Source: Actinomycetota bacterium (GTDB lineage: Bacteria > Actinomycetota > CADDZG01 > JAHWKV01). From it: 64,000 nt of DNA. Of the stretch, positions 35,059 through 52,437 are shown in pieces. How positions within the stretch are numbered: position 1 is the first letter of the stretch; each line of letters starts with the position of its first letter. A program made the position numbers and the translations under genes. The notes under the pieces were generated by a model. That model did not search any database and was not told the origin of the DNA. It saw only the letters and a program-made list of their open reading frames with translations. The DNA is taken from NCBI GenBank assembly GCA_052389675.1, contig JBQTHR010000022.1, positions 2,891 through 66,890 of the forward strand. The letters are read 5' to 3'.

Positions 35059-37134
35059 TTAGAGCGGGTCTCCCAGGGCATGCAACTGTGCTTCGGGGGC
35101 CGAGACCCCGCGGATCCGGGCCTCTTGCAGACCGAGCGCCTGGAGCCGCTCGGTGCTGATCGGCCGTCGCTGGCCGTCGGAGATGACCCAAAGCTCGCTT
35201 CCGGTGCGCAAGATGGTGCCTTCGGCGAAGCCCACGGCGGCGCCGGCGGGGAAGCGGGCGAGGGCGGCGTCGGAGACCTTGACCACGTCGTTCCATCTGA
35301 AGCGGGACTCCAGCACTGCAGGTGAGGTGATCGGCCGGCGAACTGCTGCCTCAATCAGGTAGACAGTCGGGCCGCTACCCTTGACCAGGGTTCCGTTGAA
35401 GGGCGCCTCCTTGGGATCTGCGATCGCAAACCCTTCTTCGAAGATCTCGATCTCCTCCTGGCGCACGCTCACCACTTTCTTGAACGAGTAGCCGGACTTG
35501 GTGAGCGCATGAGCCGAGGTGAAGCCCCGCCGCTTGCCTTCGGAGATCAGCCATACCGGTGTACCGGGCCGGGAGAGCAAAGTGCCGTCCCGGTATCCGA
35601 CCGGGTGCCCCAATTCGTAGCTGGTGATCTGCTCCGAGCCGATCACCGTTGCCACCGCACCTGGAAAGTGCGACGACAAAGCACCCGGGCTTGCGAAAGG
35701 CCGCTTCTTGCCGCCGGCCAACAGGTAGATGGCCGGGTCCGGCCCTTTGACCAGGGTCCCGTTGGGCAACTTGGGCGTCTCCGGGTGAGCCGCCGGGGCT
35801 GCCGCGACAACCTCAGGCGGGACCGGGACCGGGACCGGGACGGCGAGCGGCGCCTTCGGCTCGCCCTGCCAGAACAAGGTGCTCAGCAGGCCCAGTTGTC
35901 TTTTGAGCGCCGAACCTGAAACTCGCTTGGTCCCGCCTGAGCCGGTGATCCTCACGCCTCCTTGCGTGTCCGACAAGACGCTGCGCACTCTTCCAGAGAC
36001 TCCTTCGGGGCCGAGGATCTCGATTGTGGCAGGCATCCCGGCGTTGGTCGCCGGCGATGATTCCAGCCGGTCAGCCAGTTCCTGTTGGGTGAGCCGGACA
36101 CTCCACGAGCGCCGGGGGCCGGTGTCCCATGGGTCGGGCACGCCCCGCAGGTAGGGCAGGGGAGGTCCTCCCCAGACGAACTCGTTGTTCTCGGTATGGC
36201 CGCCACTGGAGGAGTGGTACACCGCCTCGATCGGCCGCCCGTTCAGTGTCAGGATCCTGCCGTCGGTGGCGTCGACTGCGGCGCGCCAGCGGTCCCCCGC
36301 CTCGCCACCCTCCTTCTCGAAACCCACGTAGACCTGATCGATAGTCGACGGGAACATCCCGCAGTTGCACGGCGTGCGGGCCTGCCCCAGCCGGGTAAGC
36401 TTCTCCAGTGCATAGGTCCGGCCAGCGATCGCTTGCGCTTTGAGAGCCTCTTCCGGCCACAATGAGGGCACCTCGCCCAAGCCGTAGAGGTAGTGCTGCA
36501 TTCCCATCCCGGTGACCGTGGCCCGGATGAGCCAGGTTTCGCCCTTTTTGTAGGTGTCTATTTGTAAGGTCCCATGTTTGTAGCGGTTGCCGGTTTGTGG
36601 CAGGCGTAGGAGGCTGCCGTGCGGCCCGTAAACTACGAACAGCGCGGCGGTAGCGCCCGGTCGGCTTACCCGTTCGCCGGCGCTGCTCAGCAGCAAAGAG
36701 CCCGAGGCGTCAGTGGAAACGTTCCATTGCTTGTCGGCGGAGCCCGTGGCGACTATCTCGCCCTCCGGGCTGCCGTAGCGCACCTCGAACTTGCCCGAGG
36801 CGCTCAGATCTATCGATGGCATGTCCCACAGCAGCCCTACTCGCACCTGAGCTGGCATCTTCCCCGTCTCGAGGGTGGTCCCTTGGTAATAGTGGGTGAG
36901 GATCTCGGCTGAGGTGCGCCCGGCGTCCGCCTGGCCCTTGGCCCCCCACTGGCTAAGGCCTAGCCCGTGTCCCCAGCCGCCGCCGGAGAACACGAAGGCG
37001 GGAGTGGGCCCCTGAGCTTTCGCAGCCATGCCGGTTGAAGGCAAGGAGGCGGCTAGGAGCAGCACCCCCACTAACGCCGCGGGTCGGCGGTGCCCTGTCC
37101 TGTGGTTTCTGTTAATGGGAGTCAAGAACAGCAT
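35059..37134 (-). CDS. SpoIID/LytB-domain secreted protein with four C-terminal about 35-aa repeats
   Basis: SpoIID signature GGGWGHGLGLSQWGA; repeated (N/D)GTL(V/L)..G...(Y/W)LI....RR.I modules. Confidence 0.75.
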   Translation of the reverse strand: MLFLTPINRNHRTGHRRPAALVGVLLLAASLPSTGMAAKAQGPTPAFVFSGGGWGHGLGLSQWGAKGQADAGRTSAEILTHYYQGTTLETGKMPAQVRVGLLWDMPSIDLSASGKFEVRYGSPEGEIVATGSADKQWNVSTDASGSLLLSSAGERVSRPGATAALFVVYGPHGSLLRLPQTGNRYKHGTLQIDTYKKGETWLIRATVTGMGMQHYLYGLGEVPSLWPEEALKAQAIAGRTYALEKLTRLGQARTPCNCGMFPSTIDQVYVGFEKEGGEAGDRWRAAVDATDGRILTLNGRPIEAVYHSSSGGHTENNEFVWGGPPLPYLRGVPDPWDTGPRRSWSVRLTQQELADRLESSPATNAGMPATIEILGPEGVSGRVRSVLSDTQGGVRITGSGGTKRVSGSALKRQLGLLSTLFWQGEPKAPLAVPVPVPVPPEVVAAAPAAHPETPKLPNGTLVKGPDPAIYLLAGGKKRPFASPGALSSHFPGAVATVIGSEQITSYELGHPVGYRDGTLLSRPGTPVWLISEGKRRGFTSAHALTKSGYSFKKVVSVRQEEIEIFEEGFAIADPKEAPFNGTLVKGSGPTVYLIEAAVRRPITSPAVLESRFRWNDVVKVSDAALARFPAGAAVGFAEGTILRTGSELWVISDGQRRPISTERLQALGLQEARIRGVSAPEAQLHALGDPL

Positions 37135-37251
37135 CGGGGAAGATTATCCTGCGGCGCGCCGATCAGAGTGGTTTTAGGCTTCAATAGTGCGAATGTCTCC
37201 GGCGGCCCTACTCCCACCAATCAGGTGACCGATCCGGTTGCCGAGGCGCCG

Positions 37252-38115
37252 ATGGTAGCGACGGTCATCGTCAACTTCGATTCCGGCTCCCATTTGGCCA
37301 ACTGCCTGGCTGCACTTGGCGCCGCTCAAGGCGAAGGATCGGTCGAATTGCTGGTAGTGGACAACGCATCCACCGACGGCAGCGTCGACGGTCTTGCCGA
37401 GGCCCACCCGGAAGTCAGGTTCGTCTACAACGCCCGTAACCTGGGCTACGGCAGCGCGTGCAACATCGGCTCGCGCCGGGTGTCGGCGCCTTTCCTGTGC
37501 TTTTTGAATCCAGACGTGGTGCCGGCTCCGGGAAGCCTGCTCGCGATGGCCGGGGCCCTGGTTGCCGATCCGAAGATAGGGGTCCTGGGGCCCCGGCTCA
37601 ACAATCCCGACGGCAGCCTCTACCCCTCCTGCCGGGTGTTCCCCGGCTGGCGAGTGGCCATCGGGCACGCGATCTTCGGGCTGCTCACCCCTAGCAACCG
37701 GTTCACCCGGGCCTACCAACTGCGCGACATGTCTCACTCCGAGCCGGCCGAGGTCGATTGGGTTTCGGGCGCGGCGATGATGGTGCGCCGGGAGGCGTTC
37801 GAACAAGTTGGGGGCTTCGACGAGAGGTACTTCATGTACGTGGAGGATGTGGACCTGTGCAGCCGGCTGCGCCGGGCCGGATGGGAGGCTCGTTACTTCC
37901 CTGCGGCACAGATGATGCACCATGTGGCCGGTTCCAGCCGGCGTACGCCTTACCGGATGATCTTCCATCACCATCGCAGTCTGCTGCGCTATGCCCTCAG
38001 CCGGACCGGCGGGGCGAAACGGTTGGCGCTCCCTCTCATTGCGGCAGGGCTGGCGGCCCGGATGGTCCTGGTCTGGATGGACTTCTTCCTGCGTCACGGC
38101 CGCAAGGGCCGTTGA
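37252..38115 (+). CDS. glycosyltransferase family 2
   Basis: VIVNFDSG...VVDNASTDGS...DxD-like FLNPDVV; WbbL/rhamnosyltransferase-like architecture. Confidence 0.8.
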   Translation: MVATVIVNFDSGSHLANCLAALGAAQGEGSVELLVVDNASTDGSVDGLAEAHPEVRFVYNARNLGYGSACNIGSRRVSAPFLCFLNPDVVPAPGSLLAMAGALVADPKIGVLGPRLNNPDGSLYPSCRVFPGWRVAIGHAIFGLLTPSNRFTRAYQLRDMSHSEPAEVDWVSGAAMMVRREAFEQVGGFDERYFMYVEDVDLCSRLRRAGWEARYFPAAQMMHHVAGSSRRTPYRMIFHHHRSLLRYALSRTGGAKRLALPLIAAGLAARMVLVWMDFFLRHGRKGR

Positions 38116-38301
38116 CTGGGACTGGGACCGGGACCGGGACCGGCAGCCGGCGGCGGCCGCAGTTCCACGCAGGAGGCTGGGCGCAGGACGGCCGGCGGCC
38201 GCAGATCCAGGGGTGAGGCCGGCGCCCCATTCCCCCAATTGGGCACATAAAAGTTGCCTTTGGGAGTCTGGGGTTGCCCCGAGCGGTGTAGAGTTTTCGG
38301 C

Positions 38302-40749
38302 ATGCCGATCAGCGTCTCCATCGTTGTCCTGAATTTCAACGGCAAGCACTTCCTTGATTCTTGCTTGGAGTCGCTGTTCTCACAGAACTACCCGGAATCG
38401 ATGGAAGTCGTGGTGGTGGACAACGGTTCTTCGGACGGTTCTGTGGACCACATCAGGACCCAATGGCCGAACGCCCGGCTGCTTGAGCTGGAAACAAACC
38501 TCGGGTTCGCCGGTGGGATCAACGCCGGGGTTGGGCACGCCCGTGGTGAGTTCGTCGCCTTGATCAACAACGACGCGGTCGCCCACAAGGACTGGCTGCG
38601 CCATGGTCTGGCTGGGTTCAAGAAAGGTTCGGACGTTGCCGTGGTCGGGTCCAAGATACTAACCCTCGACGGCAAGTCCATCGACTACGCGGGTGGCGCA
38701 CTTTCCTTCTATGGGCACGGGTTCAAGATCGGCGTGGGGGAGCCGGACGAAGGGCAGTACAACCGCCCCGGCGAGACGCTGTTTGCCTCCGGATGCGCCC
38801 TTTTCGTTCCCCGGGACTTGTTCTTGGAAGTTGGCGGTTTCGACGAGGACTTTTTCGCCTTCTTCGAAGACGTTGATCTGGGCTGGCGGTTGTGGTTGCT
38901 GGGGCACCGGGTGCTCTACGAACCCGCCTCGGTGGTGTACCACCGCCATCACGGCACCGCCGATGCGCTGGGCGAGGAACGTGAGCGCTTCCTGCTGGAG
39001 CGCAACGCCCTCATGACGATCCTCAAAAACTACTCGGACAAGACCCTTGCGCAGGCGTTTACGCCAGCCTTGATGCTGACTTTGGAGCGGGGCCTTACCT
39101 ACTCTGCGGTGGACCGGCAGGACTATGATCTCGCCTTCTCTCAGCACGGTGCCCGGCCGGACCCGGAGCTGTCCCGGATGACCATGTCTCACCTGTTGGC
39201 CATCTCTGAGGTAAGCCGGCAGATGCCGCAGATCATGGCTAAGCGACAGTTCGTCCAGAGCCGGCGCAAGCGCACCGACACAGAGATCATGTCGCTGTTC
39301 CAAAGGGCGCTGACCCCCAATATCGACGATCGGGACTTCGCTCGCACCTTTGCCGGGGTTATTGATGAGGCCGGCTTGGCGTCGGTCTTTACAGGGCGAG
39401 TCAAGGTGCTGCTGATCACCGGCGATACCGTCTCTTCGAAGATGGCCGGTCCGGCCATCCGGGCTTGGGAGATGTGTTCGGAGTTGGCTCGCAAGCATGA
39501 CGTACGGATGCTGGTTTTCAAGGCGGCCGACATCAGCCCCAAGACGTTCAACCTTGACATCTTGAGTGACGCCACCCTGCCCGACCATCTTGACTGGGCA
39601 GACGTGGTGATATTCCAGGGCTTCGTGATGCACAAGCACCCGATCATCGCCGACTGCGGCAAGGTCTTGGTGGCCGATATCTATGACCCGTTTCATCTTG
39701 AGAACTTGGAGATGTTCCGGGAGGACGATCCGGGCAAGCGGCGCAACATCTTCGAGAGCGATCTGGAGGTCATTAACGACCAACTAACCAGATGCGACTA
39801 CTTCATCTGCGCCAGCGAGAAGCAGCGGGACTTCTGGCTGGGCCAGCTTGCTGCCAACGGTCGTCTGAACCCGCACGTCTACGATATGGATCCGACGCTG
39901 CGCAGCCTGGTAGACGTCGTTCCCTTCGGCTTACCCTCCGACCCGCCGAACCATACCGGCAAGGTGCTGCGAGGGGTGGTGCCGGGCATCGGCGAGGAAG
40001 ATAAGGTCCTGCTGTGGGGGGGCGGCATTTACAACTGGTTCGACCCATTGACGCTGATCAGGGCAGTAGATCAGGTGCGCAAGGATCACCCGGAACTCAA
40101 GCTGTTCTTTATGGGTCTGGCGCACCCGAACCCGGACGTTCCCCGGATGCGTATGGCCACCGAGGCCATCAGGCTGGTGGACGAGTTGGGCCTCGGGGGC
40201 AAGCATGTCTTTTTCAACGACGGCTGGGTGCCGTACGGGGAACGGGCGAGCTACCTGCTGGAGGCGGACATCGGCGTGTCCTGCCACCTGGAACATATCG
40301 AGACGACCTTTTCCTACCGCACCCGAGTTCTGGACTACTTCTGGGCGGAACTGCCGGTCATTGTCACCAGCGGCGATGCTCTCAGCCAACTCGTGGAGGA
40401 GCGGGGCCTGGGTCTGACCGTTGGACCGGGCGACGTGGAGGGCTTTGCCGCGGCAATAACCCGGATGCTCGAAGAAGAGGACCTGGCCCGGGAGTGCGAG
40501 CTTAACGTGGGCAAGCTCCGTCCAGAGCTGGCTTGGGGAGAGATCATCAAGCCGCTGGACAGGTTCTGCACCCGCCCTCATCGGGCGGCCGACAGCCTGG
40601 AGCAGGGTCGGGTGGGCCTGCGCCTCAGCCCCCGCAGGCGTCTGATGCGGCGCATGGCGGCGGCGTGGGACGAGGGCGGAGCGGTCCTGGTGGTCCAACG
40701 CGCTGCGGGCTACAGCAAGCGCCATCTGATCAAACGGTGGACCGGGTGA
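38302..40749 (+). CDS. bifunctional glycosyltransferase (N-terminal GT2 + C-terminal GT4/GT1-like domain)
   Basis: N-term ISVSIVVLNFNG...VVVDNGSSDGS; C-term LLWGGGIYNWFDP...LFFMG...E(x7)E-like GT4 region. Confidence 0.8.
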   Translation: MPISVSIVVLNFNGKHFLDSCLESLFSQNYPESMEVVVVDNGSSDGSVDHIRTQWPNARLLELETNLGFAGGINAGVGHARGEFVALINNDAVAHKDWLRHGLAGFKKGSDVAVVGSKILTLDGKSIDYAGGALSFYGHGFKIGVGEPDEGQYNRPGETLFASGCALFVPRDLFLEVGGFDEDFFAFFEDVDLGWRLWLLGHRVLYEPASVVYHRHHGTADALGEERERFLLERNALMTILKNYSDKTLAQAFTPALMLTLERGLTYSAVDRQDYDLAFSQHGARPDPELSRMTMSHLLAISEVSRQMPQIMAKRQFVQSRRKRTDTEIMSLFQRALTPNIDDRDFARTFAGVIDEAGLASVFTGRVKVLLITGDTVSSKMAGPAIRAWEMCSELARKHDVRMLVFKAADISPKTFNLDILSDATLPDHLDWADVVIFQGFVMHKHPIIADCGKVLVADIYDPFHLENLEMFREDDPGKRRNIFESDLEVINDQLTRCDYFICASEKQRDFWLGQLAANGRLNPHVYDMDPTLRSLVDVVPFGLPSDPPNHTGKVLRGVVPGIGEEDKVLLWGGGIYNWFDPLTLIRAVDQVRKDHPELKLFFMGLAHPNPDVPRMRMATEAIRLVDELGLGGKHVFFNDGWVPYGERASYLLEADIGVSCHLEHIETTFSYRTRVLDYFWAELPVIVTSGDALSQLVEERGLGLTVGPGDVEGFAAAITRMLEEEDLARECELNVGKLRPELAWGEIIKPLDRFCTRPHRAADSLEQGRVGLRLSPRRRLMRRMAAAWDEGGAVLVVQRAAGYSKRHLIKRWTG

Positions 40750-40794
40750 AAGCGGGCCGGCCAAGCTTCACCGGTTGCCCCGGTACAGGCTCCC

Positions 40795-41589
40795 TCAGCT
40801 CCGCGGCTCCGGCGCCAGCGCCACCTCCTCCGGCTCGACATATGGCTCACCGGTGTTCTGGGAAACCTGCTTCAGATAGGCGCGGACGACCTCCTTGGCG
40901 GTGCCGGTCCGGCGCAACTTCCCGTGCTCCAGCCAGGCGGCCGAGTCACACAGGTCCTCGATCATGCCCATCGCATGGGAGACGACGACTATCGTGCAGC
41001 CGTTGCTCTTAAGCTCCAGGAATTTGGTGCGGCAGCGCTGCTGGAACTCGGCGTCGCCCACGGCCAGAACCTCGTCCACCAGCAAGATTTCGGGGGAGAC
41101 GTTGATGGCCACAGAGAAGCCCAGCCGGACGTACATGCCCGAGGAATAGTTCTTGACCGGGGTGTCGATGAACCGCTCGATGCCGGAGAAGGCGACGATC
41201 TCGTCGAATTTGCGGTTCAGTTCCTTGGAGTTGATGCCCAGGATCGCACCGTTGAGAAAGACGTTCTCCCGCCCCGACAGTTCCGGATGAAATCCTGCTC
41301 CCAACTCCAGCAGCGCCGACATGGATCCAACCGCTGAAATGGATCCTTTGTCCGGCACCAGGATGCGCGCCATACATTTGAGCAAGGTGGATTTGCCTGA
41401 GCCGTTCTCGCCGATCAGCCCGTAAGTTGACGCTTTGGGGATCTCCACCGAGACGTGGTCCAGCGCCCAAAACTCCTCGTAAACCCCCCGGCGCCGGCGC
41501 AAGACCGCCTGTTTGATGCTCTGGTTGCGCTCGTGGTAGATCCGGAACCGCTTGGAAACCCGATCCGCCGCCAGCGCAACCTCGGTCAA
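40795..41589 (-). CDS. polysaccharide ABC exporter ATP-binding protein (Wzt/TagH-like, no C-terminal carbohydrate-binding domain)
   Basis: Walker A GENGSGKST, signature YSSGMYVRLGF, Walker B LLVDEVLAVGD; TTG start overlaps permease stop (TTGA). Confidence 0.85.
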   Translation of the reverse strand: MTEVALAADRVSKRFRIYHERNQSIKQAVLRRRRGVYEEFWALDHVSVEIPKASTYGLIGENGSGKSTLLKCMARILVPDKGSISAVGSMSALLELGAGFHPELSGRENVFLNGAILGINSKELNRKFDEIVAFSGIERFIDTPVKNYSSGMYVRLGFSVAINVSPEILLVDEVLAVGDAEFQQRCRTKFLELKSNGCTIVVVSHAMGMIEDLCDSAAWLEHGKLRRTGTAKEVVRAYLKQVSQNTGEPYVEPEEVALAPEPRS

Positions 41590-42467
41590 AGCTCCTCCGC
41601 GAAGCGATCCTGGAGTTTGCGAAACGTGAGCCAACCCACGGTCATGGCAATGCCCGCTGATAGGGCCATCCATCCGAAGGTGGCTGCGGGCGGGATCTTG
41701 AGGTCGTAGAAAATCGATCGGTAGGCTTGGGTGAAGTGGACCATCGGGTTGAACTGGTAAAGCGCCTTCAGCGGGATGTCCAACCCCCCGACTACTGCAT
41801 CCCGCACGAAGCTGATCGGGTAAAGGATGGGGGTGGAATAAAACCACAAAAGCAAAAGGATCTGCAGGAGATGCTCGATGTCCCGAAAGTAAACGTTGAG
41901 GCTGGCCAGAGCCATCCCGAGCCCCAGTACGAACAGCATCTGCAGGCCGATCACAACAAGGGCTAACGGTAGGAATGGGAAGACCACCTGGCCGGCTATC
42001 AATAGGGCCACGGAGAGCACTCCCAGTTCGATCAGAAGATTGGTGTTAGCCGACAGCACGTTGGCGGCGGGCAGCACCGAGCGAGGGAAGTAGACCTTCT
42101 TGATCAGCCCGGCGTTGGCAATGACCGATCCGGTTGCCGAACTCAGCCCAGCCGCCAGGAAGTTCCAGGGCAGTAGAGCGGCGATCAGGAAGAAAGCGAA
42201 GTTCTTGAGCCCGCTGGGCGATCCCACCGGAGGGTCGATGTTGAAGAAGACTCCGAACACGAACGAGAATACGAGCATGGTGGCCAGCGGGTTCACCATT
42301 GACCACAGCCAGCCCATGGCCGACCGCTTGTACTTGGAACGGTTCTCCCGCAACGTGAGGTTGATCAGCAGAGATCGGGCTGCAGGCAGGCCGCTCAACC
42401 TCGTAGTGTTCACGCCGACTACCATACCGTTAGCTTGATGCCAGCCCCGAACCGGACAGGAACTCAT
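41586..42467 (-). CDS. ABC-2 type polysaccharide exporter permease (Wzm-like)
   Basis: Six predicted TM helices, ABC-2 family layout; coupled to ATPase gene. Confidence 0.8.
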   Translation of the reverse strand: MSSCPVRGWHQANGMVVGVNTTRLSGLPAARSLLINLTLRENRSKYKRSAMGWLWSMVNPLATMLVFSFVFGVFFNIDPPVGSPSGLKNFAFFLIAALLPWNFLAAGLSSATGSVIANAGLIKKVYFPRSVLPAANVLSANTNLLIELGVLSVALLIAGQVVFPFLPLALVVIGLQMLFVLGLGMALASLNVYFRDIEHLLQILLLLWFYSTPILYPISFVRDAVVGGLDIPLKALYQFNPMVHFTQAYRSIFYDLKIPPAATFGWMALSAGIAMTVGWLTFRKLQDRFAEEL

Positions 42468-42468
42468 C

Positions 42469-43287
42469 TTGACCCAGCCGAATGCCCCCGAGTTGCTCTA
42501 CCTTGACCTGCTCAAAAGGGTCCTGACCCGCACCGGCTTCCCGTCGTACCAGTTGCCGATCACCCGCGGATGGAAGCGCAAAGTCTACGGGCCGGTAAGG
42601 GACCTGCTCAGCGCGCGGGGCTTTCAACTGGTGCGCCGGGTGGACCCAGAAATGAGGCGTATCGGCGGTGACTGGCCCTCCGATGCCGAGACCATGGTGG
42701 GTTTGGTGCGCCTGGACAACATTCAAAGGTGCGTGGTCGATGTTATCGATAGGAAAGTGCCGGGCGACCTCATTGAGACCGGAGTCTGGCGCGGAGGCGC
42801 CAGCATCTTTATGGCGGGCATTCTGAGTGTTTACAAGGACAGCGGCCGGTTCATCTGGTGCGCCGACTCGTTCCAGGGCCTGCCGGAACCGTTGACTGGC
42901 GCTCACGCTGTTGACGTGGCTGACCCGCTCCACAAGTTCATAGATCTGGCAGTGCCCTTGGAGCAGGTTAAGCAGAACTTCGAGCGCTACGGATTGCTTA
43001 CCGACCAGGTGAGGTTCCTCCCGGGCTGGTTCCAGGACACCTTGCCCACAGCTGCGGTGGAGCAACTGGCAGTCCTGCGACTGGACGGAGACATGTATGA
43101 CTCCACCATGGTGGCCCTTGAGAGCCTTTACCCGAAACTGTCGGTGGGCGGGTATGTGATCGTGGACGACTACGGGGCGCTACGCAGTTGCCGGCAGGCG
43201 GTGCAGGATTACCGGGTGAAGCAGGGGATCGAGGACGAAATCAAGGTTGTGGACTGGGCGGCGGTCTACTGGCAACGAAGTGGGTAA
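42469..43287 (+). CDS. TylF/MycF-family sugar O-methyltransferase
   Basis: ETGVWRGGASIFMAG and GYVIVDDYG motifs characteristic of macrocin-O-methyltransferase family. Confidence 0.8.
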   Translation: MTQPNAPELLYLDLLKRVLTRTGFPSYQLPITRGWKRKVYGPVRDLLSARGFQLVRRVDPEMRRIGGDWPSDAETMVGLVRLDNIQRCVVDVIDRKVPGDLIETGVWRGGASIFMAGILSVYKDSGRFIWCADSFQGLPEPLTGAHAVDVADPLHKFIDLAVPLEQVKQNFERYGLLTDQVRFLPGWFQDTLPTAAVEQLAVLRLDGDMYDSTMVALESLYPKLSVGGYVIVDDYGALRSCRQAVQDYRVKQGIEDEIKVVDWAAVYWQRSG

Positions 43288-46326: not shown

Positions 46327-46351
46327 ACCGGGGGCCGCGCCGCCAACTCCG

Positions 46352-47527
46352 ATGGGAATGGAAGAGGACTTTATTAGGCTGCCCACCGTGGGCGAACGTA
46401 CCGGCGACGTCCAGTACGTCTTGGCCTTTCCTTCGCCTGGCCAGCACATCGAGGGAGCCTTCGTGCCGGTGCGGGGTTGGGTCTTCCACCCGGACGGAGT
46501 TGAACAGATCCAGGCACGCACCGGGCGCGCAGTGGCTCCGGTGATGCAGCGCTTCCGGCGCGACGATGTCTCGGCGGCCCTTCTGGGTCATCCCCGCGGC
46601 TATCACACCGGGTTCTACCTGGAGGTGGACCGGTCGATCTGGAGCGGCTCGTGCGAGCTTTGGATCCAAACGACCCTGGGCGAGTGGGTCAAATTCAAGG
46701 ACCTCGACGTAACGCTCAAAGACGATGTCTTCGAGCGGGCTCAGGAGAACCTCCTCTCAGTGCTGGTCTGTGCCACCTGCCACTTTCCTTTGGCCCGGGG
46801 CCAGAGCAGATGCGAGTCCTGCAGCCGCCCTGTGGAATGGCTGGGCGAGGTTCCGAGCTTCCTCGGAGCCGTGGCCAGCCCGGTGGCCCGGGGTGACGAC
46901 GTCAGCCGACACGAGATTATGGAGGAAGTTGTGCCCTCCTACTTCGAACTTGACAGCGGGGGAATGTTCCTGGATGCCGGCGCCGGCTGGCCTCCCCTAA
47001 GCCATCCGCGGGTGATCCAACTGGAGATTGAGCGATTCCCATCGACCAACGTGGTGGCCGACGGGGCTCAGTTGCCCTTTCGGGAGGCAACCTTCGACGG
47101 TATCATCAGCCATGCGGTGATGGAGCACGTAAAGGATCCGTTCGGTTACGCCAAAGAGCTGATCAGGGTGCTCAAGCCGGGCAGCCGGGTGCTGTGCCAC
47201 TCGGCGTTTCTCCAACCGCTGCACGGCTACCCGCACCATTACTTCAACACCTCCCTTGAAGGCCTTAAGACCTTGTTCAAGGGAGTGAAGATCATCGAGG
47301 AAGGAGTGGCACCGTTCCAGCAGCCCTGGCTGACGCTTGAATGGGTGCTGCGCTCCTACGTAGCTGGTTTCACGGACGAGCAGCAGAGGGAAAAGTTTAA
47401 GAAAACGCGCATCGTGGACCTTCTGGGTGACATGGACCAGCATCGGCCGCTACGCCAGTTTCAGCAACTGCGGCCGCAAAGCGTTGCAGAGTTGGCTGCC
47501 GGTGTGTACATCCTGGGCGAGCGGTGA
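46352..47527 (+). CDS. SAM-dependent methyltransferase with CxxC...CxxC zinc ribbon
   Basis: CATCHF...CESCSRP; Methyltransf_11-like DAGAGW...ADGAQLPF...FDGIISHAVMEH. Confidence 0.65.
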   Translation: MGMEEDFIRLPTVGERTGDVQYVLAFPSPGQHIEGAFVPVRGWVFHPDGVEQIQARTGRAVAPVMQRFRRDDVSAALLGHPRGYHTGFYLEVDRSIWSGSCELWIQTTLGEWVKFKDLDVTLKDDVFERAQENLLSVLVCATCHFPLARGQSRCESCSRPVEWLGEVPSFLGAVASPVARGDDVSRHEIMEEVVPSYFELDSGGMFLDAGAGWPPLSHPRVIQLEIERFPSTNVVADGAQLPFREATFDGIISHAVMEHVKDPFGYAKELIRVLKPGSRVLCHSAFLQPLHGYPHHYFNTSLEGLKTLFKGVKIIEEGVAPFQQPWLTLEWVLRSYVAGFTDEQQREKFKKTRIVDLLGDMDQHRPLRQFQQLRPQSVAELAAGVYILGER

Positions 47528-47554
47528 GCAGGCCTGGTCCAAGGGGTGCCGGTC

Positions 47555-48463
47555 CTAGCCGGCCACCTTTCGGCGCGATCCGGCCGCGTTATAGCCAGGG
47601 TCCGGGAAATCGTTCCTGCGGCGGGCCACCACCACGATGACCGAGCAGCACAACGCCCCGATAACCGGTGTGCGCTCAACCACGGGCTCAACCATTTTCA
47701 TCGCCCTGGCGATGGGATCTGGCGCGAACATGGGCACGAACCCCCCAAAGCGTGCGCCGGCAACTTCGCCCCCTGCCGAGCGGATCCAGCGGAACAGCCG
47801 GCGGGTGGAGTAGGAACGCTCGCTGTGCTCCCGGTGGTATTGGGAAACTTTCTCAATTATCTTCAGACCCAGATTGTTGCCGTTGGGTTCCAGGATTACC
47901 ACTTCGGGAGCCACTCGCAGCGCTTCCTGGATAGTGGTCCAGGGCTTGTCGTCGTGGTGCAAGACGCCCTGAATCATAGCGATGTCGAAGCTGTTGTCGG
48001 CCCATGGTAGGGCATGGCCGCTGCCCTCAGTAAACTCCATGTTGCGTTCTAAAGCCTTACTTGCTGCCACTGCTACGGCGTTGGGGGCCGGGTCGAGGCC
48101 CCTCATGCTTGCCGGGCGGTCAAGGTCGTAGAAGCGCCGAGTGAAGTGGCCGTCGCCGCATCCGATGTCAGCCACCCGCTTGCCCTGCATCGACACCGAC
48201 CGAAGGATCAAGCGCTCGAGATTCGCCGTTGCTAAGCGACTGCTCAGCTTGTCCGTGGTGGTGTAGATGTAGCCGTCGCCTCCGGCAGCGTCCCGGTCGA
48301 AGGCCGCGACTTCATTTTTCAGATTAGCGTCATCCAAGGGACTTGTGCTCCGGGGTCGGGACTGGCTTGCAAACTCCGGCAATCCTAAACGGTCAGCTGT
48401 AGCGCTCGTGGAGTTTGGGGTGCCGTTCGAACCAGAAGGCCAGCCGATCCAAGCCCTGCTCAA
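47555..48463 (-). CDS. class I SAM-dependent methyltransferase
   Basis: Motif I VADIGCGDGHF, motif II/III downstream; true start likely internal. Confidence 0.7.
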   Translation of the reverse strand: MSRAWIGWPSGSNGTPNSTSATADRLGLPEFASQSRPRSTSPLDDANLKNEVAAFDRDAAGGDGYIYTTTDKLSSRLATANLERLILRSVSMQGKRVADIGCGDGHFTRRFYDLDRPASMRGLDPAPNAVAVAASKALERNMEFTEGSGHALPWADNSFDIAMIQGVLHHDDKPWTTIQEALRVAPEVVILEPNGNNLGLKIIEKVSQYHREHSERSYSTRRLFRWIRSAGGEVAGARFGGFVPMFAPDPIARAMKMVEPVVERTPVIGALCCSVIVVVARRRNDFPDPGYNAAGSRRKVAG

Positions 48464-49337
48464 GCGAAACCTGCGGGGACCAGCCCAACTCGGTAGTGAT
48501 CTTGCGGTTGTTGCTCACCCACGTGTCGGTGTCCCAGCTGCGGGGAGCCATCGTTGCCCAGGCGGGCTCTTCTGCGATGTTCAAGCGCCGGCGAACCAAC
48601 TCGACGATTTGCGCCATCGTGGTCTGCACGCCGCTCCCCACGTTGTAGACGGGGCCGGTCTGGCCGGTACTGGAGCCGGCGGCAAGCAGGTAGGCGTCAC
48701 AGACGTCGTCGATATGGACGAAGTCCCGGGCAGTCGACGGGTTAACCAGCGGCGGCAGTTTCCCGCGAAGCCCGCAAAACACCAGTGTGGGTACCAGGCG
48801 GCCGGGCTCCTCATAAGGTCCGTAGACCGAGTACAAACGCAAAGTTGGGATGCGAATGTCGTAGCGGGAGGCGGTGAAACTGCAGTAGTGGGTGGCCGCT
48901 GCTTTCGTCCAAGCGTAGTGGCTGTTGGGTTCGAGGGACTCGTTTTCGGCGGGGGGATGGTCCTTGTGACCGTACTCGGACGATGAGCCGGTGTTTACGA
49001 AGACCTGGGCGCCGGCAGCGATCGCCGCTTCCAGCAGGTTGATTGCTCCGTTGAGGTTTGCCCGCACCATGCTTCGCAGATCTGTCTGGCCAGGATAGGC
49101 TCCGTAAGTAGCCAGGTGGAACACCCAGTTGGGCCGGATACCGTTTATTGCTCGTTCGACGGAGTCCTGATCGCCCAGATCGGCCACCACCCGGACTGCC
49201 TCGGGCACCAGGTCCAGCCGCCAGCGCCGGGCGCCTGGGCGCAGGAGCAGGAAGACCTCGTGACCTTCGTCGATCAGGCGACGGGTCAGGTTGGCACCCA
49301 CGAAGCCTGATCCTCCACTGAGCGCTACCCGGGTCAA
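48393..49337 (-). CDS. NAD-dependent sugar epimerase/dehydratase (SDR family)
   Basis: GGSGFVGANLTRRL Rossmann motif; YxxxK region; TTG start preceded by GGGGAGGA RBS. Confidence 0.8.
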   Translation of the reverse strand: MTRVALSGGSGFVGANLTRRLIDEGHEVFLLLRPGARRWRLDLVPEAVRVVADLGDQDSVERAINGIRPNWVFHLATYGAYPGQTDLRSMVRANLNGAINLLEAAIAAGAQVFVNTGSSSEYGHKDHPPAENESLEPNSHYAWTKAAATHYCSFTASRYDIRIPTLRLYSVYGPYEEPGRLVPTLVFCGLRGKLPPLVNPSTARDFVHIDDVCDAYLLAAGSSTGQTGPVYNVGSGVQTTMAQIVELVRRRLNIAEEPAWATMAPRSWDTDTWVSNNRKITTELGWSPQVSLEQGLDRLAFWFERHPKLHERYS

Positions 49338-49402
49338 CTCGGTCCTCCCCAACCCGACCGCACTAGAATGAGCCCATCTTTGGACGGCAGGGGAGTTGGG
49401 TA

Positions 49403-50305
49403 ATGGGTGAGCGCGTCGCCGCACGGCTTTGCGACCCGCAGGCGCAGATGCGGGTTGGCGTGATGGGCGGTGGGGGAGAGTTTGCTCATGCGCCCAAGCC
49501 TAGCTTTGACGGCAATCCCGGGCTGATGGCTCACCGGATCAGGCAGGGCATTGTTGAGCAATCGCACCGGGCCCACGTGGGGCACATCGGCTCGGCATTG
49601 TCCGTGGCGGATACGATCGCAGCACTCTACTGCGGTGGGATGAACATTGCCGACCCGGCGCATCCCGACCGTGACCGGTTCGTGCTCTCCAAAGGCCACG
49701 CGTGCTTGGCCTTGTACTGCGCCCTCAACCTCAAGGGCTGGCTTAGCGACGATCAACTCAACGGCTATTGTGGCGACGGCAGCTTGTTGGGTGTTCACCC
49801 GGAGCGGGACCTTTTCGGTGTGGACTTCACCACTGGATCGCTCGGCCATGGGCTGGCGCTGGGCTGCGGGGCGGCTCTGGCGGCCCGGCTTCAGGGCTCT
49901 GCCCGCCGGGTGTTCGTTTTGCTGAGCGACGCCGAGTGCAACGAGGGGTCGGTGTGGGAATCGGCCATGTTTGCCGGGCACCGGCAGCTCGGCAACCTGG
50001 TGGCGCTGGTCGACCTCAACGGCCAGCAGGCCTTGGGCTACACGAAGGACGTTGTCGATCTGTCGTCCATGGGAGGGCTCTGGCGAGGTTTCGGATGGCA
50101 GGTCCATGATGTTGACGGGCACGATTGCCCGGGTATGGTGGCCACTCTCAGTAGCCTGAAGGGCAGCCGCCCGCATGTTTTGATCGCCCGCACCACGTTC
50201 GGCAAGGGCGTGTCGTTCATGCAGGGCCAGATCAGGTGGCACTACTTACCGATGTCGCAGGAGCAGTACCTCGCAGCAATGGATGAGTTGGGATCCGCTC
50301 CTTGA
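49403..50305 (+). CDS. transketolase, N-terminal (TPP-binding) subunit of split enzyme
   Basis: GHIGSALSVADTIAALY...SKGHACLALY...GSLGHGL. Confidence 0.85.
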   Translation: MGERVAARLCDPQAQMRVGVMGGGGEFAHAPKPSFDGNPGLMAHRIRQGIVEQSHRAHVGHIGSALSVADTIAALYCGGMNIADPAHPDRDRFVLSKGHACLALYCALNLKGWLSDDQLNGYCGDGSLLGVHPERDLFGVDFTTGSLGHGLALGCGAALAARLQGSARRVFVLLSDAECNEGSVWESAMFAGHRQLGNLVALVDLNGQQALGYTKDVVDLSSMGGLWRGFGWQVHDVDGHDCPGMVATLSSLKGSRPHVLIARTTFGKGVSFMQGQIRWHYLPMSQEQYLAAMDELGSAP

Positions 50306-51384
50306 GGAAGGCCTTCATCGGGAAGCTGGTGGAGATTGCCCGGAACGACCCGCGGATCGTGCTGATGACCGGAGACCTGGGATTCACCGTCGTCGAGCCG
50401 TTCGCCGAGGAGTTCCCGGATCGCTTCTTCAACGTCGGCGTGGCGGAACAGAACATGGTGGGAATGGCCACCGGCCTGGCGGAGGCCGGGTTCATTCCGT
50501 ACGTATACTCGATTGTCACCTTCGCCAGCCTGCGGCCCTACGAGTTCATCCGCAACGGCCCGGTGGCCCACCGCCTGCCGGTCCGCGTGTTGGGGATCGG
50601 AGGCGGATTTGATTACGGGACCGCCGGAATAACCCACTACGGGCTGGAGGACCTGGGGGTTATGCGAATCCAGCCCGGCTTGACGGTCATAGTGCCAGCC
50701 GACCATCGGCAGGCGGCAGCGGCACTGGCCGCTACCCACAACTCGTCCGGCCCGATCTACTTTCGCATCGGAAAGGAGGAGTCGGGCACGGTTCCCGGCC
50801 TTGAGGGCGCTTTCCGGCTCGGGCACACCGAGCGGATCCGCCGGGGAATGGACCTGTTGATCGTGTGTGCCGGGAGCGTTACCACGGCTGCGGTTGCTGC
50901 CGCAGAGGAGCTGGCCGCTCACGGGGTTCACGTCCAGGTGGAGGTGGTCTCGTCGTTCAACCCAGGGCCGGTTGAGGATCTAGGCATCGCGCTCAGCGAG
51001 TTTGCCGTGGTTATGACCGTGGAGGCCCACTATGTTGTCGGGGGCCTGGGGTCAATGGTCGCCGAGGTGATCGCTGAGGGCGGCTTCGGCTGCCGGCTGG
51101 TGCGCTGCGGGGTCAGGCGCACGCCGACGGGAGCCGTTGGGAGCACTAGTTACATGGATGACCTTTACGGCCTATCGCCACAGGCGCTCGTGACCTGTGC
51201 ACTCGGTGCACTGGAGGTGCGATCCGTATCCAGCCATCCGGCCCGGCTGGATGAACCTGCCCAAGATGCCCTTGAGCTAAGCTTGCGCGGGCACAATGGC
51301 GCGCTCAGAGCCATCGATGCACAAGACCCTTCGCGGGGACAGACCTCTCCCGGGGGGATCCGGGGGCACCGGAGCGCGAACTAG
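50302..51384 (+). CDS. transketolase, C-terminal (pyrimidine-binding) subunit
   Basis: FNVGVAEQNMVGMATGLA...; ATGA-overlap with N-subunit gene. Confidence 0.85.
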   Translation: MRKAFIGKLVEIARNDPRIVLMTGDLGFTVVEPFAEEFPDRFFNVGVAEQNMVGMATGLAEAGFIPYVYSIVTFASLRPYEFIRNGPVAHRLPVRVLGIGGGFDYGTAGITHYGLEDLGVMRIQPGLTVIVPADHRQAAAALAATHNSSGPIYFRIGKEESGTVPGLEGAFRLGHTERIRRGMDLLIVCAGSVTTAAVAAAEELAAHGVHVQVEVVSSFNPGPVEDLGIALSEFAVVMTVEAHYVVGGLGSMVAEVIAEGGFGCRLVRCGVRRTPTGAVGSTSYMDDLYGLSPQALVTCALGALEVRSVSSHPARLDEPAQDALELSLRGHNGALRAIDAQDPSRGQTSPGGIRGHRSAN

Positions 51385-51399
51385 TGGCCCGTCTCGCAG

Positions 51400-52437
51400 A
51401 TGCCGTTGCCTAGAACCATGGAACAAGCGCCCAACCGCCGGATCAGCGCGGTCATCGCCTGCTACCGGGATGCCCCGGCGGTTCCTTCGATGCACGAGCG
51501 CCTCACCGCGGTCTTCGGCAAGCTGGGGGTCGACTACGAGATTATCTTCGTTAACGACGCCAGCCCGGACAATGCCCGCGAGGTGCTGGCCGAGTTGGCC
51601 GGCCGGGATCCCCACGTCACGGTGATAAACCACTCCCGCAACTTCGGTTCGCAAAGCGCATTCACCAGCGGCATGCGCTCGGCCACCGGCGACGGGGTGG
51701 TCTTACTCGACGGCGATCTGCAGGACCCGCCCGAGGTTATCGAACAGTTCTACGAGAAGTGGCTGGAGGGCTACGACGTCGTCTATGGAGTGCGGGTCAA
51801 GCGGGAGGCCACCAGGTTCCTGCAGATTGCCTATATGGCTTTCTACCGGCTGTTCCGCAAAGCCTCTTACGTGTCGATCCCGGCGGACGCGGGAGACTTT
51901 TCACTCATCGATCGCAGGGTGGTTGATGCTATGAACCAACTCCCGGAAACCAACCGGTTTTTGCGGGGGTTGCGGGCATGGGTGGGCTTCAAACAAGCCG
52001 GCGTCAGCTACGTCCGGCCGGAGAGGGCCTTCGGTGAGACCACGAACTCGCTGATCAGCAATCTGGGCTGGGCTCGAAAAGCGATCCTGTCGTTCTCCTA
52101 CGCACCGCTAGATTTGATCACGGTCCTTGCGGTTGTGGTGACCGCTTTGGCGGCGGTGTTAATAGTCTTCCAGATCCTCGCCCGGATCCTCTCGCCTGAA
52201 CTGGTGCCCAGCGGGTTCACCACGTTGATAGTGCTGATCCTGTTCATGGGTGGAATCCAGTTGCTTTGCCTGAGCATCATCGGTTCCTATCTGGCGCACC
52301 TGTACGATGAGGTAAAGGGGCGGCCGCCCTATATCCAGGAAAGCGTGCTCAATCCGCCGACCGCCCGCTCGCCCAATCGGGTAGCCGGCGACGAGGCTGC
52401 GGGCGTGAACCTCAAGGGTGCCCCCGAGGGCGGTTGA
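51400..52437 (+). CDS. polyprenyl-phosphate glycosyltransferase (GT2, DPM1/GtrB/ArnC-like) with C-terminal TM helices
   Basis: IIFVNDASPDN...LDGDLQDPP motif; two C-terminal hydrophobic helices. Confidence 0.8.
   Translation: MPLPRTMEQAPNRRISAVIACYRDAPAVPSMHERLTAVFGKLGVDYEIIFVNDASPDNAREVLAELAGRDPHVTVINHSRNFGSQSAFTSGMRSATGDGVVLLDGDLQDPPEVIEQFYEKWLEGYDVVYGVRVKREATRFLQIAYMAFYRLFRKASYVSIPADAGDFSLIDRRVVDAMNQLPETNRFLRGLRAWVGFKQAGVSYVRPERAFGETTNSLISNLGWARKAILSFSYAPLDLITVLAVVVTALAAVLIVFQILARILSPELVPSGFTTLIVLILFMGGIQLLCLSIIGSYLAHLYDEVKGRPPYIQESVLNPPTARSPNRVAGDEAAGVNLKGAPEGG

Follow-up and report, generated by a model that had tools for sequence, protein, structure and literature searches.

A split transketolase module in a predicted cell-envelope glycan locus of an uncultured actinobacterium

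The metagenome-assembled genome of an uncultured Actinomycetota bacterium carries a run of glycosyltransferase (GT), methyltransferase (MT) and ABC-transporter genes, which raises the question of what these genes would make together and which of their neighbours belong to the same system. We analysed them within a stretch of 64,000 nucleotides (the window). An earlier note on this DNA had read the region as an ABC-transporter-dependent glycan locus, a reading borne out by its Wzt/Wzm and GT gene content. All of the genes that the note had listed were found in their places and with the domains given, as judged by Pfam, NCBIfam and an independent gene call, the last from an identical public contig and consistent with the listed genes.

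Extent and conservation of the locus

The core block is syntenic in three related contigs (L002, L155 and L156), with 55-87% amino-acid identity. Because the entire block is syntenic in all three, the grouping of the genes is not due to chance. The G+C content of the cluster is uniform with that of its flanks (host G+C, 63%), and scans of the region for promoters and terminators returned nothing above chance. From its genes and their synteny, we conclude that the interval at 37.2-52.4 kb is a real, conserved locus, predicted to build, methylate and export a cell-surface sugar polymer.

The locus is bounded on one side by a SpoIID/LytB-domain protein of 691 aa (35059-37134, minus strand; Pfam SpoIID 2.4e-13, TIGR02669 7.8e-54), with a single hydrophobic segment in its N-terminal part and a ~58-aa repeat present four times in its C-terminal part. 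This protein had been counted as a cluster member, an assignment that its lack of conservation does not sustain: its position is occupied by GT2/GT4 genes in L155 and L156, and it is probably a neighbour rather than a part of the glycan system. On the other side lie two groups of genes outside the system by Pfam, an Mrp Na+/H+ antiporter operon (52635-58434, plus strand) and genes for a Germane-domain protein, a histidine kinase and a glyoxalase-like protein (58468-60931, minus strand). Beyond them are a Zn-ribbon MT and a large membrane protein. In L156, the Zn-ribbon MT gene and that of a 710-aa membrane protein come directly after the polyprenyl-phosphate GT gene that closes the core block, and since the MT gene occupies this position in a related contig, we count the 61-kb gene as a cluster member. 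The stretch from 52635 to 60931 was not found between the GT2 and MT genes of either L156 or another contig, L069; on this comparison, the antiporter and kinase genes split the cluster into two parts in this genome only. The cluster, beyond what the earlier note had described, runs on along the contig past the end of the window, where at least three further MT domains follow immediately. Several large membrane proteins lacking a Pfam assignment are encoded at and past this end.

Polymer assembly, methylation and export

The first two genes of the block encode a GT2 enzyme of 287 aa (37252-38115, plus strand; Pfam Glyco_tranf_2_3 and Glycos_transf_2), which has 60-66% identity to its counterparts in L002, L155 and L156 and is a candidate adaptor or early-step transferase, and a bifunctional enzyme of 815 aa (38302-40749, plus strand), which has 69-75% identity to its relatives. 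The latter combines an N-terminal GT2 with a C-terminal GT4/GT-B domain (Pfam Glycos_transf_2 at residues 22-135 and Glyco_trans_1_4 at 585-740, in the numbering of an 831-aa ORF). The exporter genes follow on the minus strand and overlap by 4 nt: a Wzt-type ATPase (40795-41589; PF00005; 264 aa by the independent gene call) and a Wzm-type ABC-2 permease of 279 aa (41586-42425; PF01061 1.1e-12). The best NCBIfam matches of Wzt (TagH and galactan Wzt) and of Wzm (NF050109 galactan Wzm, 2.4e-18) are all below cut-off.

A trimodular protein of 961 aa (43441-46326, plus strand) was examined by Pfam and an AF2 model. It consists of a SAM methyltransferase domain (residues ~55-261), a helical spacer (281-439) and two GT-A/GT2 domains (448-677 and 704-940); the model (pLDDT 84.6) places a helix of 61 residues at 281-341. 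In Foldseek, it is matched best by PmHS2 and K4CP (~1e-21), polymerases with two GT-A domains. Its family comprises 442 homologues at E<1e-30, some of them fused to WsaF_N/WsaF_C domains. By analogy, we predict that it is a WsaE-like polymerase and capping enzyme. WsaE consists of an MT and two GT domains, with rhamnosyltransferase activity at two sites and 2-O-methyl capping activity demonstrated, and it is encoded with WsaF, WsaC/D and Wzm/Wzt in the S-layer glycan (slg) cluster of Geobacillus stearothermophilus NRS 2004/3a (PMC2943079). In architecture, the two loci are alike in having a single polypeptide with an N-terminal MT and two GT domains beside wzm/wzt, in their further separate GTs, in the WsaF-domain fusions among relatives of the window enzyme, and in the proposed order of polymerisation, methyl capping and ABC export. 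They differ in that the window lacks rmlABCD, a WsaP-type primer and a WsaB transferase, adds four MTs and a transketolase module, and holds a cluster whose composition does not deviate from that of its host.

The chain end is also methylated in the polymannans of E. coli O8/O9a, in which the polymerase WbdA is paired with the terminator WbdD, with its coiled-coil ruler, and Wzt carries a cap-binding C-terminal domain; in Klebsiella O12, WbbB unites polymerase and terminator in a single protein. The window shares with these systems its ABC-transporter-dependent assembly, putative chain-end methylation and, in the predicted model, a long helical element between terminator and polymerase. In contrast to O8/O9a, terminator and polymerase form a single polypeptide here, as they do in WbbB, with no separate WbdD and no kinase domain, and Wzt is a nucleotide-binding domain only, which leaves it no cap-binding domain with which to gate export. 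This lack of a carbohydrate-binding extension, conserved in L155 and L156 (length 264-279 aa), agrees with the earlier note; the different coupling of termination and export that the note drew from it does not follow, as absence alone is insufficient and a Wzt lacking the binding domain is common within this transporter class.

The earlier note's count of MTs, four in the core cluster and a fifth at 61 kb, was confirmed. A TylF-family sugar O-methyltransferase of 272 aa (42469-43287, plus strand; PF05711 9.4e-95) matches the PDB entries 4CDZ/5I10 (1e-78), NovP (2e-74) and MycF (9e-71); its gene lies at a different position in L002 and L156 and is absent from L155. An MT of 391 aa (46352-47527, plus strand; PF08241 3.8e-11) carries a CxxC...CxxC motif upstream of its SAM domain, and a family search with its N-terminal domain of ~130 aa found no match; its gene always comes next after the trimodular gene (adjacent in L002, L003, L155 and L156, at 62-65% identity). 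The remaining two are a class I SAM methyltransferase of 260 aa (47555-48337, minus strand; Pfam Methyltransf_11/25/31) and the Zn-ribbon enzyme, a class I SAM methyltransferase of 303 aa (60961-61872, minus strand; PF13489 3.8e-22). The Zn-ribbon MT has weak full-length matches to the NDP-sugar 3-C-methyltransferases KijD1 (1e-4) and TcaB9 (9e-4) and is possibly a sugar C-methyltransferase. Together with the resemblance of the TylF enzyme to NovP and MycF and the WsaE-like fusion of an MT to a pair of GT2 domains, these matches agree with the proposal that the cluster methylates sugars. No cluster MT reached the cut-off of a lipid or protein MT family in an NCBIfam search, and the enzymes look sugar-directed.

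A separately conserved split transketolase module

Most of the glycan cluster is, by its domain content, an ordinary ABC-dependent locus; joined to it is an uncharacterised sugar-modifying module. Overlooked in the earlier note, this module unites an SDR, a split transketolase (TK), a polyprenyl-phosphate GT and two MTs, which, judged by co-conservation, form a unit of their own. Across metagenomes, dozens of contigs from different lineages carry the SDR, split TK, polyprenyl-phosphate GT and Zn-ribbon MT, in some cases with a further MT, in one operon. The order TK_N-TK_C-GT2-MT-(MT)-SDR occurs in 15 of 38 long loci, and a second variant, TK_N-TK_C-short GT2-DUF4915-sulfotransferase-like-SDR, in 16; the SDR lies within the TK operon in 28 of the 38, and in L097 it is fused to the polyprenyl-phosphate GT (SDR::GT2). 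Copies of the 260-aa MT at 46-65% identity lie inside the TK operon in ~10 loci. Copies of the Zn-ribbon MT are found in ~25 operons (31-48% identity) and right behind the polyprenyl-phosphate GT in L069 and L156 (58-61%).

The SDR (48393-49337, minus strand; ~314 aa; PF01370 6.7e-44) belongs to the extended epimerase/dehydratase family, has the motifs GxxGxxG, S-S-E and YxxxK, and has GalE-like proteins and DesIV as its best PDB matches (1e-24 to 1e-28). Its start is likely the TTG at 49337, which has GGGAGG ahead of it; with the start chosen by the gene caller, the GxxGxxG motif would be lost. The split TK is encoded by two genes on the plus strand. The ThDP-binding (PP) subunit, TK_N (49403/49448-50305; PF00456 3.2e-37), probably starts at the ATG at 49448 and matches the split TK 6YAK (1e-56), whose ThDP, metal and His residues it retains; the Pyr and C-terminal subunit, TK_C (50302-51384; PF02779/PF02780), matches 6YAJ (6e-50). 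Relative to human TK in the 6YAJ alignment, TK_C keeps R318 and E366 and carries the changes S345->F/Y, H416->G, D424->A/N, Q428->Y/H and R474->K, which are conserved across 36 family members. All 36 retain the His cluster and the Glu that activates ThDP, and all have lost the acceptor Asp and the canonical Ser/His/Arg that bind phosphate. These comparisons indicate an active site altered at its substrate positions throughout the family, with the ThDP machinery intact, a feature that the earlier note had likewise overlooked.

The module's GT (51418-52437, plus strand; GT2, 339 aa) is of the GtrB/ArnC type (PDB GtrB sll0501 5e-66, ArnC 1.5e-40), with C-terminal TM segments at 233-288 and a match to NF047588 PgfS (2e-70) that is below cut-off; it has 66-81% identity in most metagenome loci having the gene. 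Near it lies the polytopic membrane protein at 62114-64000 (minus strand), cut by the window end (gene to ~64252, 711-712 aa). It has no Pfam match and only 24 homologues. The proposal that it is GT-C-like was upheld by an AF2 model with a predicted GT-C fold (pLDDT 80.8, pTM 0.85): all of the top 14 PDB matches in Foldseek are GT-C proteins (EmbC, ArnT, AftD, AglB, AftA and STT3), at E values of 6.5e-4 to 0.16 and weak TM scores of 0.28-0.40. Its N-terminus weakly matches a YfhO protein, and its distant homologues adjoin GtrA and a GT2 of GtrB size. The membrane protein beside the module varies: YfhO in L069, a 710-aa family in L156 and a 712-aa family here.

These features resemble GtrA/GtrB/GtrC, CsbB/YfhO and ArnC/ArnE-F/ArnT: the GT2 is close to GtrB and ArnC, with C-terminal TM helices, a GT-C-like protein is near it as in three-component systems, and YfhO follows the module in L069. 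Unlike GtrA/GtrB/GtrC, the window holds no GtrA-type flippase. We know of no described Gtr or Csb system with an SDR, a TK-like enzyme and two MTs ahead of the GT2; the nearest in logic is the Arn pathway, with an SDR decarboxylase and modification ahead of lipid transfer. For the TK itself, the closest precedent by description is in the miharamycin and amipurimycin pathways, in which a split-gene TK and an oxidoreductase have been proposed, still without proof, to branch a keto sugar with a hydroxyacetyl group (PMC12247030). Split TK, oxidoreductase, sugar tailoring and a C2 ketol unit passed to a keto sugar would be common to both, whereas those are Streptomyces antibiotic clusters (13 of 13 predicted examples come from Streptomycetes, none characterised; PMC12247030) and ours is a cell-envelope glycan locus with a polyprenyl-phosphate GT, in many uncultured lineages. 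YerE-type ThDP enzymes branch CDP-keto sugars in O-antigens, giving yersiniose, erwiniose and caryophyllose (PMC12247030). In the reaction proposed here, too, a C-C bond would be formed with the help of ThDP on a keto sugar bound for a surface glycan, but YerE is a member of the decarboxylase/acetolactate-synthase superfamily with 2-keto acids as substrates, whereas the window enzyme is a two-subunit member of the transketolase superfamily.

A proposed pathway and its alternatives

Our results favour, with moderate confidence, a single conserved locus in which two parts cooperate in making a cell-envelope glycan, and for which we infer the order of steps, the TK and SDR chemistry, the nature of the sugars and the acceptor glycan. 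In the first part (37.25-47.5 kb), a polymer would grow on a polyprenyl carrier that faces the cytoplasm: early or adaptor residues would come from the GT2 and GT2-GT4 enzymes, the two GT-A sites of the trimodular enzyme would polymerise, and its N-terminal MT, set apart by the ~150-residue spacer, would methylate the non-reducing end as in WsaE. The TylF enzyme and the 391-aa MT could supply further methyl groups before export through Wzm and a Wzt lacking the cap-binding domain. The second part (at 47.5-52.4 and 60.9-64 kb, with further genes just past the window) would act as a three-component system for decoration, fronted by unusual sugar-modifying enzymes. Here, the SDR would form a keto-sugar, and the TK-like enzyme would transfer a two-carbon ketol unit to it, yielding a C-branched or chain-extended sugar. 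The Zn-ribbon and 260-aa MTs would methylate this sugar, the GtrB-type GT2 would load it onto polyprenyl phosphate and, after flipping, GT-C-fold membrane proteins would attach it to the exported glycan. As drawn, this pathway is incomplete, because the window contains no genes for nucleotide-sugar synthesis, a priming phosphoglycosyl transferase, a flippase (GtrA/Wzx) or a ligase (LCP/WaaL-like).

Pfam and NCBIfam searches found neither rml nor GDP-mannose genes in the window, and the suggestion of a rhamnan or mannan is left without backing from its genes. We consider it unlikely that the locus makes an ordinary ABC-dependent, O-methylated homopolymer of that general kind, with the TK pair serving housekeeping pentose-phosphate metabolism or precursor supply and the SDR a simple 4-epimerase feeding the GtrB-type enzyme. 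TK_N and TK_C are clear members of the TK superfamily, best matched by the split TK 6YAK/6YAJ, the SDR's closest structural relatives are UDP-hexose 4-epimerases, and PgfS-type systems, by their NCBIfam name, combine a GT2 with an epimerase. Yet the TK genes are tied in an operon to the SDR and GT2 across dozens of contigs of different lineages, and the family-wide replacement of sugar-phosphate-binding residues and the acceptor Asp is unexpected in a pentose-phosphate-pathway enzyme.

Glycosylation of a surface protein (S-layer or other), as in the slg cluster, with one of several Pfam-less membrane proteins as the oligosaccharyl:protein transferase, would fit with the S-layer origin of the closest characterised architecture (WsaE, WsaF, Wzm/Wzt), the absence of an LCP ligase from the window and the large unassigned membrane proteins at and past its end. 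We judge it quite unlikely: neither an S-layer protein gene nor a WsaB/O-antigen-ligase family match was found, and the related module of L069 adjoins an LCP ligase and rmlABCD, a setting typical of wall polysaccharides. Very improbable is an intracellular methylated polysaccharide or a secondary-metabolite sugar. The numerous MTs recall the mycobacterial methylmannose and methylglucose polysaccharides (MMP/MGLP), by description likewise actinobacterial and methyl-rich, and TylF-type enzymes are best known from antibiotic pathways and typical of macrolide deoxysugars; TK-type branching, too, has been proposed only in nucleoside antibiotics. MMP and MGLP are, however, cytoplasmic and need no Wzm/Wzt, polyprenyl-phosphate GT or GT-C protein, whereas the exporter, the polyprenyl-phosphate GT and the GT-C-like protein here point to an extracytoplasmic product, and the window holds no PKS, NRPS or aglycone genes.

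What is new in this predicted glycan locus is the module of SDR, split TK, polyprenyl-phosphate GT and Zn-ribbon MT, with or without a further MT. This set of uncharacterised enzymes is widespread, and its product is probably a modified sugar of an unusual kind.

Extent and conservation of the locus

An earlier note, made from the sequence alone, had proposed a methylation-heavy cluster for glycan biosynthesis and export at 35059-52437. We found that its gene inventory is present in full: ORF listing and Pfam and NCBIfam scans recovered every gene, and a separate gene call on an identical public contig (Logan SRR34758887_15422) concurs. When species-representative genomes were scanned with the cluster's trimodular protein, the full gene set was found in one metagenome-assembled genome (L002), and it is also carried by two metagenome contigs (L155 and L156). 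Per-protein identity across these three loci is 55-87%, and gene order is nearly unchanged. In L156, the GtrB-type GT2 has a Zn-ribbon methyltransferase and a 710-residue membrane protein immediately downstream of it; the counterparts here are a methyltransferase at 60961-61872 and a membrane protein truncated by the window end (62114-64000), both on the minus strand. This adjacency indicates that the Mrp and kinase genes split the two halves in this genome only, and that the 61-kb methyltransferase is part of the system. The intervening block (52635-60931), which comprises a complete MrpA-G antiporter operon, a Germane-domain protein, a glyoxalase-like gene and a HAMP histidine kinase with no adjacent response regulator, has nothing at its position in L156 or in L069, another related locus.

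The earlier note had also counted as a member the gene for a SpoIID/LytB-domain protein (35059-37134, minus strand). Its position in L155 and L156 is occupied by additional glycosyltransferase (GT) genes, indicating that SpoIID is a neighbor of the cluster. The protein ends in four repeats of about 58 residues, each starting G-T-[LI]-[LV] (residues 462, 520, 584 and 642), which matched no Pfam family and may form a wall-binding module. Directly upstream, LigD functions are split between two minus-strand genes, for an ATP-dependent ligase (32526-33578) and a primase-polymerase (33790-35016).

Beyond the window end, the same contig (segment L152:1-7514, approximately window 64.3-71.9 kb) encodes a 237-residue GT2, methyltransferases (MTs) of 254 and 242 residues, a GT2-MT fusion of 508 residues, and two polytopic proteins (572 and 760 residues) that lack Pfam matches. 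The fusion and the 242-residue MT are 60-62% identical to genes adjoining the transketolase module in L069. These three additional MT domains bring the locus total to at least eight. Judged by these comparisons, the cluster is a conserved unit that extends beyond what the window shows.

The region at 1-33 kb is of housekeeping character, encoding Lhr helicase, aconitase, an FtsH-like protein, L,D-transpeptidases, Fpg and LigD. The Lhr gene (18183-22895) contains a local G+C peak of 0.727 (18001-20000), and two plus-strand ORFs, 13019-14320 and 14596-16404 (433 and 602 residues), have no Pfam match. An rve-family integrase of an IS element (25922-26950, plus strand) is followed by a low-G+C stretch at 28001-30000 (0.554, versus about 0.63), and together these may represent a small inserted island; the ORFs nearby (27062-28009, 30449-31189 and 31461-32339) likewise have no Pfam match. 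We dismissed the idea that the glycan cluster itself is a horizontally acquired island, because its G+C (0.62-0.64) equals that of its flanks. Consensus scans of 34.8-52.8 kb were uninformative, giving 3 promoter and 10 terminator sites where 2.6 and 12.8 were expected.

Polymerization, methylation and export

The wzt (40795-41589) and wzm (41586-42425) genes, both on the minus strand, overlap by 4 nt, are flanked by GT genes, and are kept in L002, L155 and L156. The adjacency of a Wzm permease (PF01061) and a Wzt nucleotide-binding domain (PF00005) inside a GT cluster agrees with the ABC-transporter-dependent pathway class assigned in the earlier note. Its remark that Wzt lacks a carbohydrate-binding extension is likewise correct: the protein has 264 residues and matches ABC_tran only, as do its relatives. 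In contrast to the Wzt proteins of O8 and O9a, which possess a C-terminal cap-recognizing domain, this Wzt is a bare nucleotide-binding domain, which excludes an O9a-type cap-recognition gate on Wzt. Pfam scans of 35-64 kb detected multi-domain GTs and gave no match to Wzx or Wzy; three large membrane proteins without an assigned family lie at or beyond the window end. No priming phosphoglycosyl transferase of the WecA or WbaP type was found in the 64-kb window. The priming enzyme may be encoded elsewhere, and location of this gene outside the cluster is common.

The trimodular enzyme (961 residues; 43441-46326, plus strand) contains a Methyltransf_23 domain (residues 66-214) and two GT2 domains (449-609 and 702-915). 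It shares the architecture of an N-terminal MT and two GT domains in one chain with WsaE of Geobacillus stearothermophilus, which combines two rhamnosyltransferase activities with a chain-capping 2-O-methyltransferase and whose gene lies beside wzm/wzt (PMC2943079). The family comprises 442 proteins at E<1e-30, frequently labeled 'O-antigen biosynthesis protein'; fusion of some of them to WsaF_N/WsaF_C domains connects the family indirectly to the WsaE/WsaF pair. In a confident predicted structure (pLDDT 84.6), the MT domain is followed by a 61-residue helix, by further helical segments reaching residue 439, and by a pair of GT-A domains; the GT part best matches the two-site polymerases PmHS2 and K4CP. 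Helical elements serve as chain-length rulers in WbdD and WbbB, and by analogy the helical spacer may play such a role here. Two further GTs are encoded on the plus strand, a GT2 (37252-38115) and a GT2-GT4 enzyme (38302-40749). The GT4 half of the latter was considered as a WsaF-like domain and dropped, as the similarity was marginal (E 5e-4 in a two-sequence comparison).

The TylF protein (42469-43287, plus strand) matches PF05711 over its full length with 317 bits (cut-off 23) and aligns with the solved sugar O-methyltransferases NovP, MycF and 4CDZ at 1e-70 to 1e-79; by homology it is a textbook sugar O-methyltransferase. A 391-residue MT (46352-47527, plus strand) invariably lies downstream of the trimodular gene in relatives, and its N-terminus gave no usable Pfam match at E<=5. 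The earlier interpretation thus stands for pathway class and sugar-directed methylation. The rhamnan/mannan sugar type it suggested is unproven, as neither rml nor mannose-pathway genes occur in the window; LCP/ligase genes were not found there either. The exporter/polymerase half of the cluster is of familiar design and adds little that is new.

A transketolase module with an altered active site

The remaining genes form a module that the earlier note had overlooked and that is conserved apart from the polymer/export half. It consists of an MT (47555-48337, minus strand), a short-chain dehydrogenase/reductase (SDR; 48393-49337, minus strand), a split transketolase (TK) with subunits TK_N (49403/49448-50305) and TK_C (50302-51384) encoded on the plus strand with a 4-nt overlap, a GtrB-type GT2 (51418-52437, plus strand), and the Zn-ribbon MT. 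The public gene call starts the SDR at GTG 49301, which falls within the Rossmann GxxGxxG motif so that the motif is lost, and the call in L156 is likewise short (303 residues). TTG 49337, which restores GxxGxxG and has GGGAGG 7 nt upstream, appears the likelier start. The GT2 matches GtrB sll0501 at 5e-66 over residues 8-307 and ArnC at 1.5e-40, and has C-terminal hydrophobic segments at 233-288; by these features it is classed as a polyisoprenyl-phosphate glycosyltransferase of the GtrB/ArnC/DPMS type.

TK_N homologues at 62-70% identity are very numerous and have the same neighbors, and a metagenome scan confirmed at least 491 TK_C relatives, the module being abundant in metagenomes from soil and sediment. 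Among the matches listed, 38 loci span 7 kb or more, and two operon types recur in them. The window type, TK_N-TK_C-GtrB-type GT2-Zn-ribbon MT-(MT)-SDR, accounts for 15 of them. A second type, TK_N-TK_C-short GT2-DUF4915-sulfotransferase-like-SDR, was found in 16 (L070, L071 and 14 more; e.g. L123:3093-8600); here a short, soluble-looking GT2, DUF4915 and a sulfotransferase-like protein replace the GtrB-type GT2 and the MTs, which suggests that the product is sulfated rather than methylated. Conservation is tight: where the GtrB-type GT2 is present, most loci show 66-81% identity for it. One locus encodes the SDR and this GT2 as a single 715-residue protein (L097:1628-3772, minus strand), as apparently does L090, and this fusion links the SDR and GT2 steps. 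In L069, rmlABCD and an LCP ligase adjoin the module, and a YfhO-family (GT-C) protein comes after it. We found no relevant literature on transketolases with O-antigen or branched-sugar clusters or with YfhO, on DUF4915, on split transketolases, or on polysaccharide gene clusters with methyltransferases.

Alignments to 6YAK, 6YAJ and human TK showed that TK_N retains the ThDP/metal motif and the His cluster, and that TK_C retains the cofactor-activating Glu and the first Arg; these residues are conserved in 35-36 family members. The substrate site differs. Relative to human TK and 6YAJ, TK_C carries F/Y for Ser345, G for His416 and K for Arg474, positions that in transketolases bind the sugar phosphate, and A/N for Asp424, which contacts the acceptor C2-OH. 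Human Gln428 (His-Gln in bacteria) is replaced by Y/H. All or nearly all of 36 TK_C relatives share these substitutions, whereas 6YAJ, the split TK of C. hydrogenoformans, keeps the canonical residues. By this comparison the window enzyme is not a canonical transketolase (EC 2.2.1.1), and the altered residues argue against a role in the pentose phosphate pathway and for a different acceptor. The one published analogue of TK-type sugar branching that we found comes from miharamycin and amipurimycin biosynthesis, where a split-gene TK following an oxidoreductase is proposed to branch a keto sugar by hydroxyacetyl transfer; that reaction is still unproven and is predicted in Streptomyces only (PMC12247030).

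The Zn-ribbon MT matches the NDP-sugar 3-C-methyltransferases KijD1 and TcaB9 over its full length but weakly (1e-4 and 9e-4); the Zn-ribbon Cys pairs are present, and the protein is about 110 residues shorter than TcaB9. Such enzymes combine a four-Cys Zn ribbon, a SAM domain and a C-terminal domain, and act on NDP-4-keto sugars, methylating beside the 4-keto group.

Candidate membrane partners and a proposed pathway

Large polytopic proteins, mostly undetected by Pfam, lie near most copies of the module. The protein at the window end has a full length of 711-712 residues, just 24 homologues, and a nearly invariant 'PWD' past the first helix; neither it nor the 572- and 760-residue proteins gave a usable Pfam match at E<=5. 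Its alignment-based model (pLDDT 80.8, pTM 0.85) had only GT-C proteins among its top 14 PDB matches (EmbC, ArnT, AftD, EmbA/B, AglB, AftA and STT3), with TM-scores of only 0.28-0.40. GT-C enzymes pair a polytopic N-terminal TM domain with an extracytoplasmic C-terminal one and have an acidic residue in their first outer loop. The N-terminus of the window protein shows weak similarity to the L069 YfhO protein, and its distant homologues precede a GtrA-family gene and have a GtrB-size GT2 nearby. We provisionally regard the protein as a likely GT-C enzyme. The 760-residue protein is a homologue of the membrane protein downstream of the module in L155 and L156. Comparison ruled out both homology of the 712-residue protein to the module-adjacent protein of L156 and identification of the latter as YfhO. 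Among ten large module-adjacent membrane proteins elsewhere, three gave weak Pfam matches to PMT_2 or YfhO.

We propose that the WsaE-like enzyme would polymerize and methyl-cap a glycan in the cytoplasm, aided by the GT2 and GT2-GT4 enzymes, that the chain would be further O-methylated, and that Wzm/Wzt would export it; this half of the model follows from architecture, synteny and the WsaE precedent. In a parallel branch, the SDR would form a keto-sugar, which the TK-like enzyme would extend or branch with a C2 unit; two MTs would methylate the modified sugar, the GtrB-type GT2 would load it onto polyprenyl phosphate, and GT-C proteins would attach it outside the cytoplasm. The chemistry of this branch is our inference; it draws on the SDR-GT2 fusion and the changed TK active site as well as on co-conservation and the single, unproven precedent. 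We suggest, tentatively, that the module could represent a widespread, undescribed pathway that places a C2-branched or chain-extended methylated sugar on polyprenyl phosphate for GT-C decoration of surface glycans.

Other readings of the locus were weighed. The TK pair could be a housekeeping enzyme and the SDR a simple epimerase, which we consider unlikely: conservation of the operon and the active-site changes both weaken this explanation. It is also unlikely that the locus serves protein (S-layer) glycosylation. A third reading, in which the product is an intracellular methylated polysaccharide or a secondary metabolite, seems very improbable, since the exporter contradicts it, as do the lipid-carrier GT and a GT-C-like protein.

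The module joins a ThDP enzyme with a rebuilt substrate site to standard machinery for loading sugars onto a lipid carrier, and we conclude that it merits experimental follow-up. If the proposal is true, the module would be the first known case of sugar branching by the transketolase superfamily in cell-envelope biosynthesis; it would also offer a first testable model of TK chemistry that has so far been no more than postulated for miharamycin and amipurimycin. If a branched or extended sugar is indeed made, the module would provide a new enzymatic way of making tertiary-alcohol sugars and a soluble test system for chemistry that has proved hard to study in antibiotic biosynthesis, and it would predict an unrecognized class of surface-glycan decoration in uncultured Actinomycetota, Chloroflexota and others.
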